A DNA stretch of 64,000 bases from Myxococcales bacterium. GTDB taxonomy: Bacteria > Myxococcota_A > Polyangia > Nannocystales > Nannocystaceae. The stretch covers positions 442,730 to 506,729 of the forward strand of contig JACKDU010000002.1 of NCBI GenBank assembly GCA_020633335.1. The letters run 5' to 3'. This document shows, piece after piece, positions 12,550 through 27,675 of this stretch. The notes below the pieces were generated by a model. It had not been told where the DNA came from, made no database searches, and saw nothing but the letters and a program-made list of their open reading frames with translations. The translations under genes were made by a program, and so were the position numbers. Numbering within the stretch: the first letter of the stretch is position 1; the number at the start of each line of letters is the position of its first letter.

Positions 12550-14226
<1,677 letters not shown>

Positions 14227-19162: not shown

Positions 19163-19184
19163 CCGCTCAACAACTGAATGGCCT

Positions 19185-19350
19185 GCGGTCACGCCCGAGG
19201 ACGGCGTGAAAAGAGGGAAGTCGGTGAAGATCCGACGCGGCTCCCGCCACTGTGATCGGTGACGAGGTCTGCAAAGAGCCACTGGGGGAGAAACCCTGGG
19301 AAGGCGCAGACCGAGGATGACCCGAAAGCCAGGAGACCTGCCGCAGGCGA
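19185..19350 (+). promoter_or_regulatory. cobalamin (AdoCbl) riboswitch
   Basis: Near-consensus elements in order: 'agaGGGAAGtcGGTGaAgATCCgacGCGGCTCCCGCCACTGTga', then 'GCCACTGGGggagaaaccctGGGAAGGC' (B12 box), then 'GAcccGaaAGCCAGGAGACCTGCCgc'. It lies in the 5' leader of a TonB-dependent receptor gene. Confidence 0.88.
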
Positions 19351-19548
19351 CCTCGCCGCCCCGCTCGATGCGGGGCGCGGTCCACGGGAGGATGGACCGG
19401 AGCGCCCGCGTTCGGCGGGCTCCCGCCTCCCTGGAATTGGTGAGACGGGAGCGAACTCGCCATCACACGCCGACGCCCCTACCCCCCTCTCTTCAGCGCC
19501 CTCGCCGGACTCCTCGGCGCCGCCACAGCAGCGGCGCCTGCCGCGGCG

Positions 19549-21648
19549 ATGGCCGCAGGTGAGGACGGGGCCGCAGGGGGCTCCGCGCGTCCCACCGAGG
19601 AAGCACCGGGGAGATCGCAGGCTGATTCACCCGGCGCCCTGCGGACCGTCGTCCGCAGCCGCCGCGATCCCCAGGCCGAGGCCGACGCCCGCAGCCCGGG
19701 CTTCGTCACCGCGATCGACGTCGCGGCGATCGAGGACAGCCGCCCCGCGGACGATCTCCCGCGCCTCCTCAATGAGGGGGCGGCGACCAACGTCCGCTCG
19801 CTCGGCGGCCTCGGGCAATTCTCGGCGGTGTCGATCCGCGGCTCGACCGCCCAGCAGGTCGCCTACTACATCGACGGCGTCCCCCTCGGCCAGGCGCTGA
19901 GCGGCCTCCAGAGCGCGGGCGATCTCCCGCTCGACGGCCTCGATCGCATCGAGGTCCACCGCGGCCACCTCCCGCTCGCGCTCGGCTCGGCGATCGGCGG
20001 GGCGATCAACCTCGTCGGCGATCTCCGCTGCCGCGGCCCGGCCCTGCGGGCGATCGCCGGGGTCGGCTCCTTCGCCGGGCATGACGCCCGCCTCGCGACG
20101 CGCTGGCGGATCCGCCGGGTCTGCCTCAGCGCCCGCGCCGGGGTCGCCGGAGCAGCCGGCGACTTCGACTTCCTCGACACCCGCGGCACCCCGCAGAACC
20201 CCGCCGACGATCGGCTCGTCCGGCGCCGCAACAATCAATACGAGCGGGCGCTCGGCCAGCTCGGGGTCGCGGCCCGCCGCGGCCGCTGGGTGCTCCGCGG
20301 CCGCCAGCTCGTCGCCACCAAGCGCCAGGGGATCCCGGGGCCCGGCTACGCCCAGTCGACCCTGAGCGAGCTCGAGACCCTGAGCGCGCGGACCCTGGCG
20401 AGCGCCGAGGCCAGTGACCTCCTCGGCGAGGGCGCGCCGCTGACCTGGGTCGCCAGCGTCGGCGTCGAGCGCCGGCGCTACCGCGATCCCCTCGGCGAGG
20501 TCGGCCTCGGCAACGACGACGAGCGCCTCCTCGCCGCCGACGCCTACCTCTCGCCGCGCCTGGCGGTGCCGCTCTGGCGCGGCGCGATCCTCTCGCTCCT
20601 CGGCGAGGGCCGGGGCGAGGCGATCGCGGTCGACGAGGCCCAGGGGGTCCCGGGCGCGAGCGGCGACGCCCGCCGCCGCCGCTTCGCCGCCGCCGCCGGC
20701 CTCCAGCTCGATCAGCGCCTCGGCGGCCGCTTGCTCGTCGCCCCGGGGATCCGGATCGACGCCCTCCGCAGCCGCTTCGCCGTCCCCGCGGGCGAGGGCG
20801 AGGTCGACGATCAGGGGCGCGACGCCGCGACCCTCGGGACCTCGCCGCGCCTCGCCGCCCGCCTCGATCTCGGCGAGGGGCTGAGCCTGCGGGCGAGCGC
20901 CGGCCGCTACTTCCGGGCGCCGACCCTCGTCGAGCTCTTCGGCGACCGCGGCTATGTGATCGGCAACGAGGGGCTCCGCCCCGAGCGCGGCACCAACCTC
21001 GAGGGCGGCTACGTCTACCGCCGCGGCGGCCGCGATCGCGATCTCGACCTCCGCCTGCACACGGCTGGCTTTTGGACCAGGTCCGAGGATCTGATCCAGT
21101 GGGTGCAGACCGGGCCGGTGATCCAGCCGCGCAACCTCGCCGCGGCGCTGGTCCGCGGGATGGAGCTCGGCCTCGCCGCGAGCTGGCGGCGCCTCCTCGC
21201 CGTCGACGCGAGCTACACGCTCCTCGCCACCCGCAACCTCAGCCCCGACGCGTCGATGGCCGACAAGCGCCTGCCGGGGCGCCCCCTCCACCAGCTCTTC
21301 GCCCGCGCGAGCGCGGGCTGGCGCTTCGCCAGCGCGGTCGCCGGGGCGATCGAGCCGCGCCTCCACTACACGCTCGAGGTCACCTCCGGCACCTTCCTCG
21401 ACGCCTCCGAGCGGGTCGCCGTGCCGCCGCGGGTGCTCCACGGCTGCGGGATCAGCGTCGAGCTCGCCGAGCGCCTCCGCCTCGCGCTCGAGCTCCGCAA
21501 CCTCCTCGATCTCCGGACCACCACCTGGACCCCGCCGGTCCGCGGGGCCTCGCCGCTGACCGTCCCGGTGAGCGACTTCATCGGCTACCCGCTCCCCGGT
21601 CGCTCGCTCTGGGCGAGCCTCCGGATCGACCTCGATCGCCCGCACTAG
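19549..21648 (+). CDS. btuB: TonB-dependent outer-membrane receptor (BtuB-like, B12-riboswitch controlled)
   Basis: Plug domain 'IDVAAIEDSRPADDLPRLLNEGAATNVRSLGGLGQFSAVSIRGSTAQQVAYYIDGVPLG'. A long beta-barrel follows. Only the ATG at 19549 is available in this frame. The in-frame upstream stretch encodes a signal-peptide-like sequence with no start codon (see findings). Confidence 0.85.
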   Translation: MAAGEDGAAGGSARPTEEAPGRSQADSPGALRTVVRSRRDPQAEADARSPGFVTAIDVAAIEDSRPADDLPRLLNEGAATNVRSLGGLGQFSAVSIRGSTAQQVAYYIDGVPLGQALSGLQSAGDLPLDGLDRIEVHRGHLPLALGSAIGGAINLVGDLRCRGPALRAIAGVGSFAGHDARLATRWRIRRVCLSARAGVAGAAGDFDFLDTRGTPQNPADDRLVRRRNNQYERALGQLGVAARRGRWVLRGRQLVATKRQGIPGPGYAQSTLSELETLSARTLASAEASDLLGEGAPLTWVASVGVERRRYRDPLGEVGLGNDDERLLAADAYLSPRLAVPLWRGAILSLLGEGRGEAIAVDEAQGVPGASGDARRRRFAAAAGLQLDQRLGGRLLVAPGIRIDALRSRFAVPAGEGEVDDQGRDAATLGTSPRLAARLDLGEGLSLRASAGRYFRAPTLVELFGDRGYVIGNEGLRPERGTNLEGGYVYRRGGRDRDLDLRLHTAGFWTRSEDLIQWVQTGPVIQPRNLAAALVRGMELGLAASWRRLLAVDASYTLLATRNLSPDASMADKRLPGRPLHQLFARASAGWRFASAVAGAIEPRLHYTLEVTSGTFLDASERVAVPPRVLHGCGISVELAERLRLALELRNLLDLRTTTWTPPVRGASPLTVPVSDFIGYPLPGRSLWASLRIDLDRPH

Positions 21649-21682: not shown

Positions 21683-22942
21683 ATGCAGACCCCGACCCTC
21701 AGAACCCCGACGCGCCCGCGCGATTTTGCGCTCGCCGCTCCCCTCCTCCTCCTCCTCGCCTGCACCGGCGGGAGCGCGACCTCGGAGTCCGAGGGCGCGA
21801 CCGACTCTGACTCCGACACCGGGGCGGCGACCGACTCCGACACCGAGGGCGCGCCGACGATCCTCGAGCTAGACGGCCCCTGCCAGGGCCCGGTCGCCGA
21901 TCCGAGCCGCCTCGCGGTGATCACCACCGACTTCGTCAACGGCTCGCTCAGCGTCGCCGACGCGGCCGCGATGAGCGTCAGCCTCGACGTCGCGGCCGCG
22001 ACCACCGACACCCTGGCGACCTGGGCCGACGGCCGCCTCTACCTGGTCCATCGCTTCGGCTTCAACGCGATCGACGTCCTCGACGGCGCCTCCTGGGCGA
22101 AGGTGGGGAGCCACATGGTCAGCGTCGACGGGGTCGCCGAGCCCAACCCGCAGACGCTGGTGATCGGCGACGACGGCCTCGCCTACCTCACGCTCTTCGG
22201 CGCGCCCGAGGTGCAGGTCCTCGACCTCGCGGGCGGCGGCGGCGAGGTCGGGACGATCGACCTCAGCGCCTTCGCCGACGACGACGGCAACCCCGAGGCC
22301 GGGGTGGCGATCGCCTGCGGCTCGACCCTCATCGTCGGGATCCAGCGCCTCGATCCGAGCTTCACGCCGGTCGACCAGAGCTACCTCGTCGCGCTCGACA
22401 TGACCCTGGGGACAGCCATCGACCTCGACCCGAGCGCCGACGGGATCCAGGGGCTCGCGCTCGCCGGCTCCTGGCCCCGGCAGATCCGGGTCGACCCGGC
22501 CGATCCGAGCGGCGAGACGATCCTGGTGCTGACCAGCGGGATCGAGCGGATCCACCTGCCGAGCGCGACCCGCGAGTGGGCGCTCGCGGCCGCCGATCTC
22601 GAGGCCGCCGGGATCGCCGGCTTCGCCCCCCAGGCCTTCGTCACGGACGCAGCCGGCGAGGTCGCCTACCTCGCGGCCAGCGACGGCGAGTGGCCGGCGG
22701 CGGCGGTCTTCCGGGCCGGCCTCGACGGCCGGGCGCCGACCGCCCCGGAGAAGGTGATCAGCGGGATCGCCACCCACGAGAAGGTCCTCGAGCGGATCGG
22801 CGACCGCCTCTGGGTCGGCGACACGACCCCGGGCGCCAGCGGCCTCCGGGTCTGGGACCTCGCCGCCGGCGCGCCGACCGAGGTCACCGCCGCCCCCCTC
22901 GACACCGGCCTCCCGCCCTACACCCTCCTGCCGATCCCCTGA
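21683..22942 (+). CDS. lipoprotein of unknown function, paralog 1 (beta-rich, probable propeller-like); in the B12-uptake operon
   Basis: Lipobox 'APLLLLLACTGG', then an acidic S/D/T linker. Shares blocks and C-terminus ('...DTGLPPYTLLPIP') with the next gene ('...ATGLAPYALSVVP'). An 8-bp gap separates it from the next gene. Confidence 0.7.
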   Translation: MQTPTLRTPTRPRDFALAAPLLLLLACTGGSATSESEGATDSDSDTGAATDSDTEGAPTILELDGPCQGPVADPSRLAVITTDFVNGSLSVADAAAMSVSLDVAAATTDTLATWADGRLYLVHRFGFNAIDVLDGASWAKVGSHMVSVDGVAEPNPQTLVIGDDGLAYLTLFGAPEVQVLDLAGGGGEVGTIDLSAFADDDGNPEAGVAIACGSTLIVGIQRLDPSFTPVDQSYLVALDMTLGTAIDLDPSADGIQGLALAGSWPRQIRVDPADPSGETILVLTSGIERIHLPSATREWALAAADLEAAGIAGFAPQAFVTDAAGEVAYLAASDGEWPAAAVFRAGLDGRAPTAPEKVISGIATHEKVLERIGDRLWVGDTTPGASGLRVWDLAAGAPTEVTAAPLDTGLPPYTLLPIP

Positions 22943-22949
22943 GGCGCCG

Positions 22950-24161
22950 ATGCCCCGCCGACCCCTCGCCGCCCTCCTGGCGCTCGTAGCCTGCGACTCG
23001 GCGCCGCCGCCGATCGATCCGCCGGACCAGGGTCCGCCGCCGATCGTCGGCGCGCCGGCCCTCGATCGGCCCTGCGAGGGGCCGCCGGAGGCCCCCCGCT
23101 TCCTCGCGGTGACGACCACCGACTTCACCACGGGGGCGCTCTCGATCGTCGACGTCGAGGCGATGGCGTCGACGCCAGACGTCGCCCTCGCCAGCTCCGA
23201 CGCCAAGCCCTTCGCCCACGAGGGCCTCCTCTACGTGCTCCACCGCTACCAGCTCGACGCCCTCGACGTCATCGATCCGGCGGCCGAGTGGGCGCTGGTC
23301 GACTCCCAGGCGATCGATCACGAGGGCCCCGGGAGCGCCAACCCGCACGCGATCGCCTTCGCCGACGACGGCCTCGCCTACGTCTCCTTCTTCGGCGCGC
23401 CGGCGATCGCCGTCTACGACCTCGGCGATCCCGCGCACCCGCGGCGGAGCGGGACGATCGCCCTCGGCGCGCTCGCGGACGCCGACGGCAACCCCGAGGC
23501 CTCGCTGGCGATCGCCTGCGGCGACGCGCTCTTCGTCACCCTCGAGCGCCTCGACCGCGACGCCGCCTTCGCCCCGCGCGAGGACCACGACGAGGTCGCG
23601 GTGATCGACCGCGCGAGCGGCCGCCTCCACGACCTCGACGCCGACGCGCCGGGGATCCAGGGGATCGAGCTCCGGGGGCTCTGGGCCCGGCAATGGCGCC
23701 GCGATCCCGACGACCCGCGCGGGACGACGCTGCTGGTCCTCACCGAGGGGATCGAGCGCCTCGATCTCGCGGCCGGCGAGAGCACCTGGCTGGTCGCGCC
23801 GGCGCTCCTCGAGGGGCTCGGGATCCGCTCCTACCTCCAGCCGCAGGCCTTCGCCCTCCACCCGGCGAGCGGCGCGATCTACCTCGCTAGCTACCGCGAG
23901 GACTTCTCCGAGGTGGTCGTCCACCGCGTCGATCCGGCGGCGGAGCCCGAGGCTGCGGCGGTCGAGGTCCTCAGCGGCCTGATGACCAGCGAGCAGACCC
24001 TCGAGGTGATCGGCGACACCCTCTGGATCGGCGACCGCACGCCGGGCGCCGCCGGGATCCGGGCCTACGCGATCGACCCGAGCAGCGGCGCCCTGAGCCC
24101 GCGCCTGGACGCCCCCCTCGCCACCGGGCTCGCGCCCTACGCCCTGAGTGTGGTCCCCTGA
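22950..24161 (+). CDS. lipoprotein of unknown function, paralog 2 (tandem duplicate of 21683..22942)
   Basis: Lipobox 'LAALLALVACDS'. Shared blocks are 'PCEGPPEAPRFLAVTTTDFTTGALSIVD' versus 'PCQGPVADPSRLAVITTDFVNGSLSVAD', 'DGLAYVSFFGAP' versus 'DGLAYLTLFGAP', and 'ADADGNPEASLAIACGDALFV' versus 'ADDDGNPEAGVAIACGSTLIV'. Confidence 0.7.
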   Translation: MPRRPLAALLALVACDSAPPPIDPPDQGPPPIVGAPALDRPCEGPPEAPRFLAVTTTDFTTGALSIVDVEAMASTPDVALASSDAKPFAHEGLLYVLHRYQLDALDVIDPAAEWALVDSQAIDHEGPGSANPHAIAFADDGLAYVSFFGAPAIAVYDLGDPAHPRRSGTIALGALADADGNPEASLAIACGDALFVTLERLDRDAAFAPREDHDEVAVIDRASGRLHDLDADAPGIQGIELRGLWARQWRRDPDDPRGTTLLVLTEGIERLDLAAGESTWLVAPALLEGLGIRSYLQPQAFALHPASGAIYLASYREDFSEVVVHRVDPAAEPEAAAVEVLSGLMTSEQTLEVIGDTLWIGDRTPGAAGIRAYAIDPSSGALSPRLDAPLATGLAPYALSVVP

Positions 24162-24163
24162 GC

Positions 24164-25234
24164 GTGATGACGATGCGCGGAGACGAGCGTCGCGGGGAGC
24201 GCGGAGGCGAGCACAGGGCCCGCCTGCGGCGTCGGGCGTCGGCGGCCGCCGCCGGAGATGTCCCCACGACCAGGTCGAGCGGGCGCGCGCGCGCGGGCGA
24301 TTCGCTCGACGTCGCCGCCGCGACCGAGCCCCGCGAGCGACGCCCTCGCGCCCGCCTGCGCAGCCTCGCCGGCGCCCTCGCCCTCGCCTGCGCCACCTCG
24401 CTGTCGGCCTGCGCGCGCCCCCCTGCCCCGCGTGCGGAGACCAACGAGCACCGGCGGGTCGCCTCGCAGACGGTGCTCAGCGACGAGATCCTCTGGGCGC
24501 TCGGCCCCGAGACCCAGGCCCGGGTGATCGCCGTCTCGCCGCTCGTCGACGATCCCCGCTACTCGACGATCCCCGGCGCCTGGCCGCCCGCGCTGCCCCG
24601 CCTCGCCGGCTCGTCGGAGTCGCTCCTCGCGCTCGCGCCGGACCTCGTGATCATCGCCTCCTTCACCGCCCCCGAGACCCGCGTCTTCCTCGAGGCCCAC
24701 CACGTCGAGACCCTCGAGCTCGACGCCTTCACCGGCTTTGACGATCTCTGGCGCCACACCCGGGCGATCGCCGCGGCGGTCGACGCCGAGGCCGCGGGCG
24801 AGGCGCTGATCGCCGGCCAGGAGGCCCGCCTGGCCGCGCTCCGCCGCGATCACGATCGCGGGCGCCGCCCCGCCGCCGTCTCCTGGGGCGACGGGATGAT
24901 CGCCGCCCGCGACACCTCCTTCGACGCGATCGCCGGGGCCGCCGGGCTCGACAACCTCGCCGCCGCCCGCGGTCTCGTGGGACATGTCCCTTTGACCATC
25001 GAGGAGCTCACCGCCTGGGATCCCGAGGTCATCGTCATCGGCTGCGAGCCGCCCGGCTGCGAGGCGGCGGAGCGCGAGCTCGCCGGGCGGCCGGGGATCG
25101 CCGCGACCCGGGCGGCCCGCGAGGGCGGGATCATCGCGCTCCCGGCGGCCGCGCTGGCGAGCACCGGCGAGGGGATGATCGTCGCCGCCGAGCTCCTCAG
25201 CGCCCGCCGCCTCGCGCTCCCGGAGGCGCCGTGA
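24164..25234 (+). CDS. btuF: ABC transporter periplasmic substrate-binding protein, BtuF/FecB (class III) family
   Basis: Signal 'LRSLAGALALACATSLSACA'. 'RVIAVSPLVDDP...LAPDLVIIASFTAPE...HVETLELDAF...WDPEVIVIGCEPPG' is the two-lobe siderophore/B12 binding-protein pattern. Confidence 0.75.
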   Translation: MMTMRGDERRGERGGEHRARLRRRASAAAAGDVPTTRSSGRARAGDSLDVAAATEPRERRPRARLRSLAGALALACATSLSACARPPAPRAETNEHRRVASQTVLSDEILWALGPETQARVIAVSPLVDDPRYSTIPGAWPPALPRLAGSSESLLALAPDLVIIASFTAPETRVFLEAHHVETLELDAFTGFDDLWRHTRAIAAAVDAEAAGEALIAGQEARLAALRRDHDRGRRPAAVSWGDGMIAARDTSFDAIAGAAGLDNLAAARGLVGHVPLTIEELTAWDPEVIVIGCEPPGCEAAERELAGRPGIAATRAAREGGIIALPAAALASTGEGMIVAAELLSARRLALPEAP

Positions 25235-26244
25235 GCCGCCTCCCCCTCGTCCTCGCCCTCGCCGCTGCGCTCGCGGCCCTCGCCCTCGCGCTCCTCGTCG
25301 GCCCCGGCGAGCTCGGCCCCGGCGACGTCGCGGCGATCCTCGGCCACCACCTCGGCCTCGTCGACGCCGCGCCGCCGCCGATCGCCGACGCGATCATCTG
25401 GGAGCTCCGCCTCCCCCGCGCCCTCCTCGCGGCGGTGATCGGCGCGGCCCTCGGCGGCGCCGGGGCGATCACCCAGGGCCTCTTCCGCAACCCGCTCGCC
25501 GAGCCCGGCGTCCTCGGGATCTCCTCCGGAGCCGCCCTCTTCGCGGTGATCGGCTTCGCCCTCGGCCTCGACGCCGCGACCCCGTGGGCAGCCGCGCTCC
25601 TCGCCGCCGGCGGAGCGACCAGCGTCCTCCTCCTCCTCCTCGCCTTCGTCGGCGCGCGGATCGACGTCGCCACCCTCCTCCTCTCGGGGGTCGCGGTCGC
25701 GGCCCTCGCGTCGGCGGTCACCACCCTGATCCTCGCGCTCGCGTCGGCGCGCTGGGATCTCGGGCTCCGGGTGATCCACTGGCTCATGGGATCCTTCGAG
25801 GGCCGGAGCTGGGGGCACCTGGCGATCGCCGCGCCGATCGTCAGCCTCGGCCTCGGCCTCAGCCTCTGGATCCGCCGCGACCTCGACGTCCTCTTCCTCG
25901 GCCCCGAGAGCGCGCGCTCGCTCGGCGTCGACCTCCGCCGCCTCCACCTCCAGGCGATCGCGGCGATCGGCCTCCTCGTCGGCGTCGCCACCGCGCTCAC
26001 CGGGATCATCGGCTTCATCGGCCTCATCGTCCCCCACCTCGCCCGCCGCCTCGGCGGCCCCGGGCACCGCCGCCTGATCCCGCTGAGCGCGGCGATCGGC
26101 GGCGGTGTCCTCCTCCTGGTCGACACCGGCGCCCGCGCGTTCACGTCCTTCGTCCTCCCGCCCGGGGTGATCACCAGCCTCCTCGGCGCGCCCTTCTTCC
26201 TCTGGATCCTCTGGCGCCAGCGGGTGCGGGTCGACGGGCTCTAG
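25231..26244 (+). CDS. btuC: ABC transporter permease, FecCD/BtuC family
   Basis: 'RLPRALLAAVIGAALGGAGAITQGLFRNPLAEPGVLGISSGAAL' is the FecCD signature. About 9-10 TM helices. Start overlaps the upstream stop. Confidence 0.85.
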   Translation: MSRLPLVLALAAALAALALALLVGPGELGPGDVAAILGHHLGLVDAAPPPIADAIIWELRLPRALLAAVIGAALGGAGAITQGLFRNPLAEPGVLGISSGAALFAVIGFALGLDAATPWAAALLAAGGATSVLLLLLAFVGARIDVATLLLSGVAVAALASAVTTLILALASARWDLGLRVIHWLMGSFEGRSWGHLAIAAPIVSLGLGLSLWIRRDLDVLFLGPESARSLGVDLRRLHLQAIAAIGLLVGVATALTGIIGFIGLIVPHLARRLGGPGHRRLIPLSAAIGGGVLLLVDTGARAFTSFVLPPGVITSLLGAPFFLWILWRQRVRVDGL

Positions 26245-26370: not shown

Positions 26371-27675
26371 CTACTCGATCTCGACCCGCCGCACGAGCAC
26401 CTCGCCGATCGTCACCTCGACCGCGACCGCCTCGGGCGGCGGCGTGAAGCGGACGCCGACGCCGACGCCGACGAGCGCCCCCTCCCCGTCGAAGGCCCGC
26501 CAGCGCCGGAGCGGCTCGCCCTCGTCCCAGCCCTCCGCCGGCGCCAGCCAGCCGTCGCCGTCGCCGACCAGCGCGGCCGCGTAGGCGGGGGGCTCCTCGG
26601 GGAGCGGCGCCCCGGCCGGCCCGAAGAAGCGCTCGTCGACCGGCTCATTGCGCCAGTCGCAGTGGACGTGGTCGTCGTAGACCTCGCGGAAGCCGGCGCC
26701 CTCGACCCCGCAGCGGTCGTAGACCTCGGCGAGGCTCGCGTTCGACGCCTTGAGGTCGAAGGCGTCGCCGTAGATGTGGCGCGACCAGGTCGAGCCGCCG
26801 AGGCCCGCGTTGTGGACCGGGTTGCGGAACCCCGAGGGCACGGTGATCGGCCCGAGCGCGTCGCGGATCGCCTGGATGTGCTCGACCGCCGACGGCTGGA
26901 CGACGACGTAGGGCCCGAACTGGGCGGTGACCAGCTCGCTGAACGCGAAGTTCGGCGCGACCTTGATCCCGAGGTCGACGCCGGTGAGGTCGATGAAGGC
27001 CAGGGGCGCCCGGTAGTTCGGGTCCTGATCGAGGGGCGGCGGGTACTCGAAGCCGAGCTCGTCGGCCGCGGGCAGCACCAGCGGGAAGCAGACATCCCAG
27101 GCGCCCCCGGGCCCGGGGTAGCAGACGTCGTCGCCGAGGACGCCAGTGTCCCCGGTGTCCCCCGTGTCCCCGGTGTCCTCGCCGTCGCTGACCACGGTGA
27201 CCCGCGTCGCGCCGCCGACGATGTAGCCGCAGCCGTCGTAGGCCGTCGCCTGGATCGACCGCGGGCCGACCGGCGCGAAGGTGTACTCGACCGCGAAGTC
27301 CGAGGCCACGTCCGTGCTCTCGCCGATGTAGAGCACGGCCTCGGCCTCGTAGACCACCCGCGCGACCGGCCCGTCGGCGACCGCGGTGATCGTGACCGGG
27401 TTGACCGCGCTCGCCCCCGGCGACGTGATCTCGAGGTTGACCGTCTGACCGCAGGCCTGGCCGCCGGTCTGGCCGCCGCTGGTCCCCTCCCCGCTCTCCC
27501 CGCCGCTCGACGACGAGGCGCCGGTCGACCCCTCCCCCGACGAGCCGGGGCCCGGGTCTCCGCTCGAGGGGAACGCGTTGGTCCCGCCCTCACTCGCCCC
27601 CTCGGAGGGGCCACCACAGGCGACGCCGAGCGCGGCCGAGAGGGCGCCTGCGAGGTATTTCGGGGGTCTCACCAT
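26371..27675 (-). CDS. secreted lipoprotein with C-terminal peptidase M15/DUF882-like (YcbK/VanY-type) zinc D,D- or L,D-peptidase domain
   Basis: Lipobox 'LSAALGVACGG'. Gly/Ser-rich linker. Motif 'VPSGFRNPVHNAGLGGSTWSRHIYGDAFDL...DDHVHCDW' matches the SGxR...N..GG..S.H..G.A.D...H.D metal site of M15/DUF882 peptidases. Confidence 0.65.
   Translation of the reverse strand: MVRPPKYLAGALSAALGVACGGPSEGASEGGTNAFPSSGDPGPGSSGEGSTGASSSSGGESGEGTSGGQTGGQACGQTVNLEITSPGASAVNPVTITAVADGPVARVVYEAEAVLYIGESTDVASDFAVEYTFAPVGPRSIQATAYDGCGYIVGGATRVTVVSDGEDTGDTGDTGDTGVLGDDVCYPGPGGAWDVCFPLVLPAADELGFEYPPPLDQDPNYRAPLAFIDLTGVDLGIKVAPNFAFSELVTAQFGPYVVVQPSAVEHIQAIRDALGPITVPSGFRNPVHNAGLGGSTWSRHIYGDAFDLKASNASLAEVYDRCGVEGAGFREVYDDHVHCDWRNEPVDERFFGPAGAPLPEEPPAYAAALVGDGDGWLAPAEGWDEGEPLRRWRAFDGEGALVGVGVGVRFTPPPEAVAVEVTIGEVLVRRVEIE

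Follow-up and report, generated by a model that had tools for sequence, protein, structure and literature searches.

In this study, we analyzed a 64,000-nucleotide stretch of DNA (hereafter the window) from a Myxococcales bacterium of the family Nannocystaceae (GenBank assembly GCA_020633335.1, contig JACKDU010000002.1, positions 442,730 to 506,729 of the forward strand), which contains two adjacent lipoprotein genes on its plus strand, here called LipoA (21683..22942; 419 aa) and LipoB (22950..24161; 403 aa). Both products are predicted seven-bladed β-propellers encoded in an operon led by a cobalamin riboswitch, and they are very probably involved in the uptake of vitamin B12. We consider it probable that they act as lipid-anchored, acidic propellers that capture corrinoids and serve a BtuB-like TonB-dependent outer-membrane transporter (TBDT), in the fashion of the BtuG proteins of Bacteroides thetaiotaomicron. 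Direct binding of corrinoids by LipoA and LipoB is in itself likely, and a position as surface-exposed lids on the transporter is possible, if somewhat doubtful. Docking of the proteins on the transporter and a division of roles between the two are elements of the model that we infer.

The two proteins share 167 identities over 381 positions (44%, with 12 gaps; BLASTP E=6e-89), a match so far above chance that the paralogy proposed in a first-pass annotation of this DNA, made from the sequence alone, is real. The blocks quoted in that annotation, PC(Q/E)GP, LAV(I/T)TTDF..G(S/A)LS, DDGLAY...FGAP, AD(D/A)DGNPEA..AIACG, (I/L)LVLT(S/E)GIER and TGL(P/A)PY, occur in both. Its description of the pair as lipoproteins was likewise sound, as a signal peptide is followed by a lipobox in each protein, LLLA with the lipid-anchor cysteine Cys27 in LipoA and LVA with Cys15 in LipoB, and this cysteine is kept across the Nannocystaceae homologs. 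Behind the anchor, LipoA carries an acidic, disordered tether of about 35 residues rich in Asp, Ser and Thr, and LipoB a Pro-rich one. The genes lie 7 nt apart (22943..22949, ‘ggcgccg’) and not 8 bp as first given, and their co-transcription within the B12 locus is supported; ‘co-translated’, the term used at first, goes too far for genes that are at most possibly translationally coupled. An early suggestion that one protein may be surface-exposed and the other periplasmic has no direct support: what distinguishes them, namely the type of linker and a few residues of the face assigned as conserved, does not indicate separate compartments.

The operon in which the pair resides reads, on the plus strand, riboswitch, TBDT, LipoA, LipoB, BtuF-like protein and BtuC-like permease. 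Its leader (19169..19359) matches the cobalamin riboswitch aptamer over the full length of the Rfam model (RF00174, positions 1-189; 125.1 bits, E=5.4e-31), the sole RNA family matched by Rfam in the 64 kb; with our own covariance model, which had the window itself among its training sequences, the score was 184 bits. The transporter gene (19462..21648) encodes a BtuB-like protein with matches to Pfam Plug (3.7e-13) and TonB_dep_Rec_b-barrel (9.2e-36), and its score against the NCBIfam model TonB-B12, 94.6 bits, is under the cut-off of that model. Downstream of LipoB follow the BtuF-like periplasmic substrate-binding protein (24164..25234; Peripla_BP_2, 6.8e-20, residues 106-329), which is syntenic in related loci, and, as the last gene of the operon, the BtuC-like ABC permease (25231..26244; Pfam FecCD, 2.5e-81; NCBIfam BtuC, 219 bits). 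The genes are tightly packed, with 34 nt between those of the TBDT and LipoA, at least 2 nt between LipoB and BtuF, and a 4-nt overlap of BtuF and BtuC. A consensus scan found no promoter- or terminator-like sites on the plus strand inside the operon, but such a scan is uninformative at the local G+C content of 72-75% (about 70-77% across the window).

The connection with B12 regulation extends to the propeller family as a whole and is not confined to this operon. A pattern derived from the alignment of the closer homologs was scanned against one genome per GTDB species and gave 79 related loci, in which neighboring genes were located by tblastn with the window's five operon proteins. In about 66 of these 79 loci, the gene directly preceding that of the propeller encodes a TBDT. 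When a covariance model trained on eight Rfam-confirmed loci plus the window was run on all of them, 18 loci gave no riboswitch match; as 12 of these lie on contigs truncated upstream, 67 loci are informative, of which 61 have a cobalamin riboswitch upstream of the propeller gene on the same strand. Five of the six informative exceptions (L062, L065, L066, L069 and L075) are among the more distant relatives, and the sixth, L034, is close (4e-69). Rfam confirmed the riboswitch in every one of the 16 loci checked, first in eight sampled loci and then in eight weak or distant ones, and the confirmed distant loci include members of the Eisenbacteria, Deferrisomatales, Binatia and Latescibacterota and an alphaproteobacterial metagenome-assembled genome (MAG). 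The co-occurrence of homologs with B12 riboswitches elsewhere, which the first-pass annotation had proposed to look for, is supported.

The predicted structures are of high confidence. The AlphaFold2 model of LipoB, built from a 67-sequence alignment, has a pLDDT of 94.8 and a pTM of 0.91 and consists of 28 β-strands, and in this model the C-terminal strand pairs with the first three N-terminal strands, so closing the ring. The model of LipoA (pLDDT 90.0) exceeds 95 in the propeller and falls below 50 in residues 28-53, the disordered tether. Both are all-β, we group the 28 strands into seven blades of four, and the best PDB matches are seven-bladed propellers, so that the β-propeller guessed at first was correct and the assignment of the models to the seven-bladed class is certain. 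In Foldseek searches against the PDB, the top 14 matches of LipoB comprise 13 B. thetaiotaomicron BtuG1/2/3 entries and 3fgb_A at rank 10 (E=1.6e-11 to 9.5e-10; TM-score, here and below normalized by target length, up to 0.73); lactonase-like propellers, XusB, NirF and YncE rank below them. The top 15 matches of LipoA are all BtuG1/2/3 (E=3.8e-12 to 4.7e-11; TM-score 0.67-0.76); the archaeal YVTN propeller 1l0q is the first match after them (1.9e-10), and from there the E-value drops about 100-fold, all others being at 1e-8 or weaker. Among solved structures, those of BtuG are thus the nearest to both propellers. Foldseek scoring also uses sequence, and a specific affinity of the predicted fold to BtuG is suggestive and not decisive. 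The family had at first been called unknown, which holds for its sequence, as no Pfam or NCBIfam model covers it, but not for its fold and context, in which its closest structures are B12-binding BtuG lipoproteins from Bacteroides.

A ligand site is suggested by the charge and the conservation of the proteins. The mature forms carry net charges of -40 (LipoA) and -37 (LipoB) against a family median of -32, and the transporter stands at +11. The family-invariant polar residues D58, D84, R99, D103, N131, D177, D179, E183, D202 and D228 (LipoB numbering, also for the cysteine pair and the substitutions below) would, as judged from the DSSP strings of the models together with conservation, for the most part belong to the D-to-A and B-to-C loops and thus share one face of the propeller. 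The strong acidity, together with conserved acidic residues on this assigned loop face, points to a ligand site. Two cysteines noted early as a conserved pair, C42 and C190, occur without exception in the 52 close homologs; of the 15 distant relatives in the alignment, all lack C190 and 13 lack C42, only P0086 and P0089 keeping C42 alone. By topology, C190 would lie at the end of an inner strand, on the side of the propeller away from the conserved loops, and it is plausible from this pattern of conservation, which is confounded with lineage, that a C42-C190 disulfide ties the N-terminal segment to the rest of the propeller.

On this basis, a pathway can be proposed. When intracellular B12 is low, the riboswitch would be unliganded and the whole operon expressed. 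LipoA and LipoB would be exported, lipidated at Cys27 and Cys15, respectively, sorted to the outer membrane and held there on their flexible tethers, and corrinoids would be attracted and bound by the propeller face with the conserved loops, which is negatively charged. At least one of the two paralogs would then dock on the transporter and pass the ligand over for TonB-driven import, after which BtuF and BtuC, with an ATPase encoded elsewhere, would complete the uptake. LipoB, the conservative copy, would be the better candidate for the partner of the transporter. LipoA, the divergent copy, has a longer, acidic tether and fixed changes on the putative binding face, and probably a shifted role; it may have another corrinoid specificity or affinity, or may serve as an outlying ‘fishing’ module that feeds LipoB and the transporter.

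Several observations weigh against this BtuG-type role. At the level of sequence, phmmer searches with LipoA and LipoB against all PDB sequences, the BtuG chains included, returned no BtuG match at E<=10, the lone match being an unrelated 127-aa hypothetical protein (2ook_A, E=0.023, with LipoA as the query). The family profile reached BtuG1/2 at E=0.0067 over 65 residues only and matched the archaeal YVTN S-layer protein 1l0q more strongly (5e-9). The operon has one TBDT but two propellers, which a one-to-one BtuB:BtuG model does not explain, and the argument for a binding face is drawn from topology only, as that for a complex capping the transporter is drawn from the adjacency of the genes. 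The location of the proteins is a further difficulty. Outer-membrane lipoproteins of diderms with a Lol-type system face the periplasm by default, barring a dedicated exporter, and no K-(D/E)2-type motif, the Bacteroidota export signal, follows the lipid cysteine in LipoA or LipoB. BtuG itself reaches the surface by such a Bacteroidota lipoprotein export signal, which is specific to that phylum (PMC6143338). For LipoA and LipoB, no counterpart of this signal is known or apparent.

The default placement of lipoproteins and the missing export signal also favor the principal rival to the BtuG-type role, in which the propellers are anchored in the inner leaflet of the outer membrane, where they would take B12 leaving the transporter or store it and hand it to BtuF. 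The LipoB gene adjoins that of BtuF, and E. coli provides a parallel in YncE, a periplasmic seven-bladed propeller that is among the Foldseek matches and whose gene stands beside that of the transporter YncD/PqqU (bioRxiv 10.1101/2022.06.07.495086). However, deletion of yncE in E. coli gave no phenotype for the substrate of the neighboring transporter (bioRxiv 10.1101/2022.06.07.495086), and the extreme negative charge of LipoA and LipoB suits long-range capture from the environment. Moreover, relatives without a lipobox carry C-terminal sorting domains of the type IX secretion system (T9SS) instead (Por_Secre_tail and FlgD_ig), which would place the proteins of those branches, in other phyla, outside the outer membrane, implying from domain content a cell-surface location there. 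Taken together, we regard the periplasm-facing arrangement as rather unlikely, although enzymatic and purely structural roles are less likely still. Slam-type surface lipoproteins, which have a C-terminal barrel and not a propeller, were a further candidate and were set aside for that reason.

It is improbable that LipoA and LipoB are enzymes, that is, hydrolases resembling lactonases, phytases or SGL proteins, or proteins that remodel a corrinoid or its carrier around import. The many invariant Asp, Arg, His and Glu residues and the ADxDGxPE loop, which resembles a metal or catalytic site, would fit such a function, and two orthologs are named ‘BPP domain-containing protein’ (β-propeller phytase) in UniRef. 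However, there is no Pfam phytase match, the Lactonase model (PF10282) was matched by one of 70 family members (E=0.13), and the LipoA Foldseek results set BtuG clearly apart from the lactonases. In addition, the family is strictly paired with a transporter and a B12 riboswitch, a pattern known from binding accessories such as BtuG, BtuH and BtuJ. The β-propeller phytase assignment was rejected, as neither the family model nor the fold matches, and so was the 6-phosphogluconolactonase/Lactonase family (PF10282), judged by match to its model and by metabolic gene context. Least probable is a role as a structural or assembly partner that stabilizes the transporter in the manner of BamB without touching a ligand: BamB propeller lipoproteins occur among the weaker Foldseek matches and one family member matched Pfam PQQ_2/BamB at E=0.0016, but these structural matches are weak (TM-score 0.46-0.52), the strongly acidic family with its conserved acidic residues assigned to one face points to a ligand site, and the family tracks B12 riboswitches specifically and not transporters in general.

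The BtuG-type role thus remains the reading that we prefer, and the known systems show both how far the likeness extends and where it ends. BtuG1 (a BT1490-type fusion), BtuG2 (BT1954) and BtuG3 (BT2095) of B. thetaiotaomicron are surface-exposed, B12-binding lipoprotein lids of BtuB. Like them, LipoA and LipoB are strongly negative seven-bladed propeller lipoproteins with a flexible N-terminal tether, encoded beside a BtuB-type transporter under a cobalamin riboswitch, with several paralogs per genome. For BtuG2, with a net charge of -18e, molecular dynamics ascribed the long-range capture of dipolar B12 to charge, and the N-terminal linker of BtuG serves as a hinge on BtuB (PMC10404256); the published binding residues of BtuG2 include Glu55, Phe58, Gln93, Asn107 and Ser131 (PMC13616437). 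In contrast to BtuG, LipoA and LipoB occur as two tandem copies per transporter, lack the Bacteroidota export signal and come from Myxococcota, and their propellers are longer (about 365 residues compared with about 320-340). Identity in structural alignments is about 12-16%, with no usable sequence similarity, and, judged by the phmmer and profile searches above, neither protein would satisfy the limit of BlastP E<1e-10 to BT1490, BT1954 or BT2095 by which Wexler et al. (2018) recognized BtuG homologs. Owing to this and to the absence of the export signal, we do not file LipoA and LipoB as BtuG members, and describe them as a BtuG-like analog or very remote homolog. BtuG has been reported to be exclusive to Bacteroidetes (PMC6143338), the phrase ‘exclusive for Bacteroidetes’ has been applied to transporters capped by a lipoprotein (PMC10404256), and a September 2026 review places BtuH and BtuJ beyond the Bacteroidota without listing BtuG there (PMC13616437). 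In the literature searched, we found no report of BtuG-like proteins in Myxococcota or other non-Bacteroidota phyla.

Other propellers share part of this profile. XusB of Bacteroides is a xenosiderophore-binding propeller lipoprotein and the partner of the transporter XusA; its regulation is iron-dependent, whereas the control element in the window is a cobalamin riboswitch. YncE and the archaeal YVTN S-layer propellers belong to the same broad YVTN/YncE repeat class as LipoA and LipoB. However, YncE is soluble, periplasmic and of unknown function, and its gene stands beside a transporter gene without a riboswitch, whereas LipoA and LipoB are riboswitch-controlled lipoproteins. The closest parallel to a tandem pair is BtuK1/BtuK2 of B. 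thetaiotaomicron, likewise seven-bladed propeller lipoproteins under a B12 riboswitch, although BtuK has an N-terminal PKD domain and is a weaker fold match than BtuG. Only BtuK1 of the two binds B12 (PMC13616437), which sets a precedent for functional divergence in a pair of this type. In contrast to the BtuK pair, LipoA and LipoB both keep almost all of the residues that are invariant in their family.

The pair is the product of an old duplication of which both copies have been retained. In a neighbor-joining tree of 80 propeller sequences, the first-position copies form one clade (A), which is monophyletic and has a long branch, and the second-position copies form another (B). Both copies are present in 13 genomes, always in the order A then B, and three genomes (L005, L008 and L014) have only the B-type gene. 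Nannocystis exedens, N. pusilla and N. punicea are among the carriers of an orthologous pair (loci L009, L010 and L012). The tethers behind the lipid-anchor cysteine follow this division, being acidic and composed of Asp, Ser and Thr in clade A and Pro-rich, with the motif PPPI.G.P, in clade B. Two changes are fixed in 100% of clade A, D103N at an otherwise invariant position and NPH to NPQ; together with nearby changes at positions 81, 82, 85 and 130, they are assigned by topology to sites in or beside the D-to-A and B-to-C loops.

LipoA and LipoB belong to a sizeable family without a characterized member. Pfam and NCBIfam scans of the two proteins gave nothing usable, the lone match being SBP56 at E=0.0096, far below its cut-off, and no curated NCBIfam model matched either of them at E<=0.1. 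Seventy family members gave only scattered sub-threshold matches to propeller repeats, two to 7_blade_YncE (NF052280; best E=0.046) and eight to the YVTN repeat (TIGR02276; best 2e-5), and such matches speak for kinship with YncE and YVTN proteins at the repeat level only. Pfam DUF5074, a model that may be tied to BtuG-like proteins of Bacteroidota, although a literature search gave nothing relevant on it, was matched by two of the 70 members (E=0.0073). Nannocystaceae and other Myxococcales account for nearly all of the roughly 67 close homologs, and Candidatus Eisenbacteria have more distant relatives with a length of about 470 residues. A profile search of a word-indexed protein database reached barely beyond a single-sequence search, whereas an exhaustive profile search of 1.84 billion cluster representatives gave 678 matches at E<=1e-30 and 2318 at E<=1e-10. 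The family comprises at least about 680 clusters at 50% identity. The signature motifs TTDF.TG, (H/N)R...D, NP(H/Q/Y) and ADxDG.PE persist across phyla. PDB sequence searches that started from the distant relatives P0071 and P0094 also returned no BtuG. Among the more unusual members, P0101 (739 aa) contains two profile stretches, with a full-length match in its C-terminal half (residues 387-736) and no Pfam match, and may be a fused double propeller, and those of two Binatia-type MAGs (L063:7902-9005 and L067:7932-9005) have N-terminal GDxxGDGxVTIxE repeats instead of a lipobox, which look like calcium-binding dockerin or EF-hand repeats.

The gene content around the propellers varies among the related loci. 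BtuF and BtuC follow the propeller in loci of Nannocystaceae and other Myxococcota; in the distant-phylum loci, BtuF was not detected by tblastn with the window proteins. Loci with a single propeller copy have a BtuD ATPase gene directly after BtuC, without an equivalent in the tandem-copy clade that includes the window. As none of the window's operon genes encodes an ATPase, and a tblastn query with the BtuD-like ATPase from L024 had no match in the 64 kb, the ATPase must be encoded elsewhere. At L029, the riboswitch lies upstream of the propeller and the TBDT gene after it, and at L044, L045 and L057, the riboswitch is followed by a small lipoprotein and the propeller with no TBDT gene between. 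Small lipoproteins of this kind (about 200-237 aa, lipobox ITIAC, C-terminal GFDLDAVAV, no Pfam match) are encoded in riboswitch-controlled operons, for example at L024:9062-9772, with equivalents in about 30 loci (L020 9380-9970, L038 9062-9772 and L063 4844-5404 among them). In single-copy loci, their genes separate the propeller gene from that of BtuF; in others they precede the propeller or the transporter, and the tandem-copy clade, the window included, has none. At L028, a second cobalamin riboswitch match (13536-13728, minus strand; 58.9 bits) lies beyond the downstream end of the operon and opposite to it in strand, which suggests that a further unit under B12 control is close by.

The start of the transporter gene deserves comment. 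The mechanical open reading frame (ORF) call places it at ATG 19549, but a signal peptide, RRRPYPPLFSALAGLLGAATAAAPAAA, is encoded only if the frame is read from ATC 19462. Because a start at ATG 19549 leaves no signal peptide, the transporter probably begins at the non-canonical ATC 19462. This codon ends a conserved block, GGTGAGACGGGAG-N5-CTCGCC-ATC (19439..19464, plus strand), which contains a putative Shine-Dalgarno sequence (GGGAG). The part up to CTCGCC is present in the window and 24 related loci, where the codon that follows is ATC in 15 (the window and 14 loci), ATG in five and a non-start codon in the other five. The block is probably part of the expression platform of the riboswitch and would act through sequestration of the Shine-Dalgarno sequence. 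The start of the BtuF gene also appears misplaced: in the region 24164..24460, the mechanical ORF opens with ~70 Arg-rich residues that look unreal, and a signal peptide ending in ATSLSAC is found further in. The true start is therefore probably downstream of 24164, and BtuF may itself be a lipoprotein. The unit is closed by a convergent Peptidase_M15 gene on the minus strand (26371..27675; Peptidase_M15_3, E=7.7e-14), which encodes a 434-aa probable lipoprotein (…LGVAC) and has no evident connection with the B12 genes before it.

B12 is a keystone shared nutrient. To our knowledge, how non-producers compete for it has been detailed only for E. coli, which uses BtuB alone, and for gut Bacteroides, which combine BtuB with BtuG and other surface binders. 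What is new here is a large unannotated family that combines the fold of BtuG with a lipid anchor, extreme acidity and an equivalent place in the operon. Cobalamin riboswitches control this family in Myxococcota from soil and sediment and in at least five further phyla. This suggests that a BtuG-type uptake strategy is present in soil Myxococcota and several other phyla. We put forward more tentatively that the ‘pedal-bin’ arrangement, a TBDT capped by a surface-exposed propeller lipoprotein that captures the ligand, may be widespread for B12 through a sequence-distinct, BtuG-like family beyond the Bacteroidota, with hosts among the Myxococcota (Nannocystaceae and Kofleriaceae), Eisenbacteria, Binatia, Latescibacterota, Deferrisomatales and some Proteobacteria; this would imply an unrecognized export route for surface lipoproteins in Myxococcota and a split between capture and hand-over in the pair of the Nannocystis lineage. 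If LipoA and LipoB do bind corrinoids, lipoprotein-assisted capture of micronutrients would reach well beyond the gut Bacteroidota, and hundreds of clusters now labeled ‘hypothetical protein’ would gain a functional annotation. The surface placement of lipoproteins in Myxococcota would then become a testable question, and the retained A/B pair would offer a natural system in which to study the divergence of corrinoid specificity.

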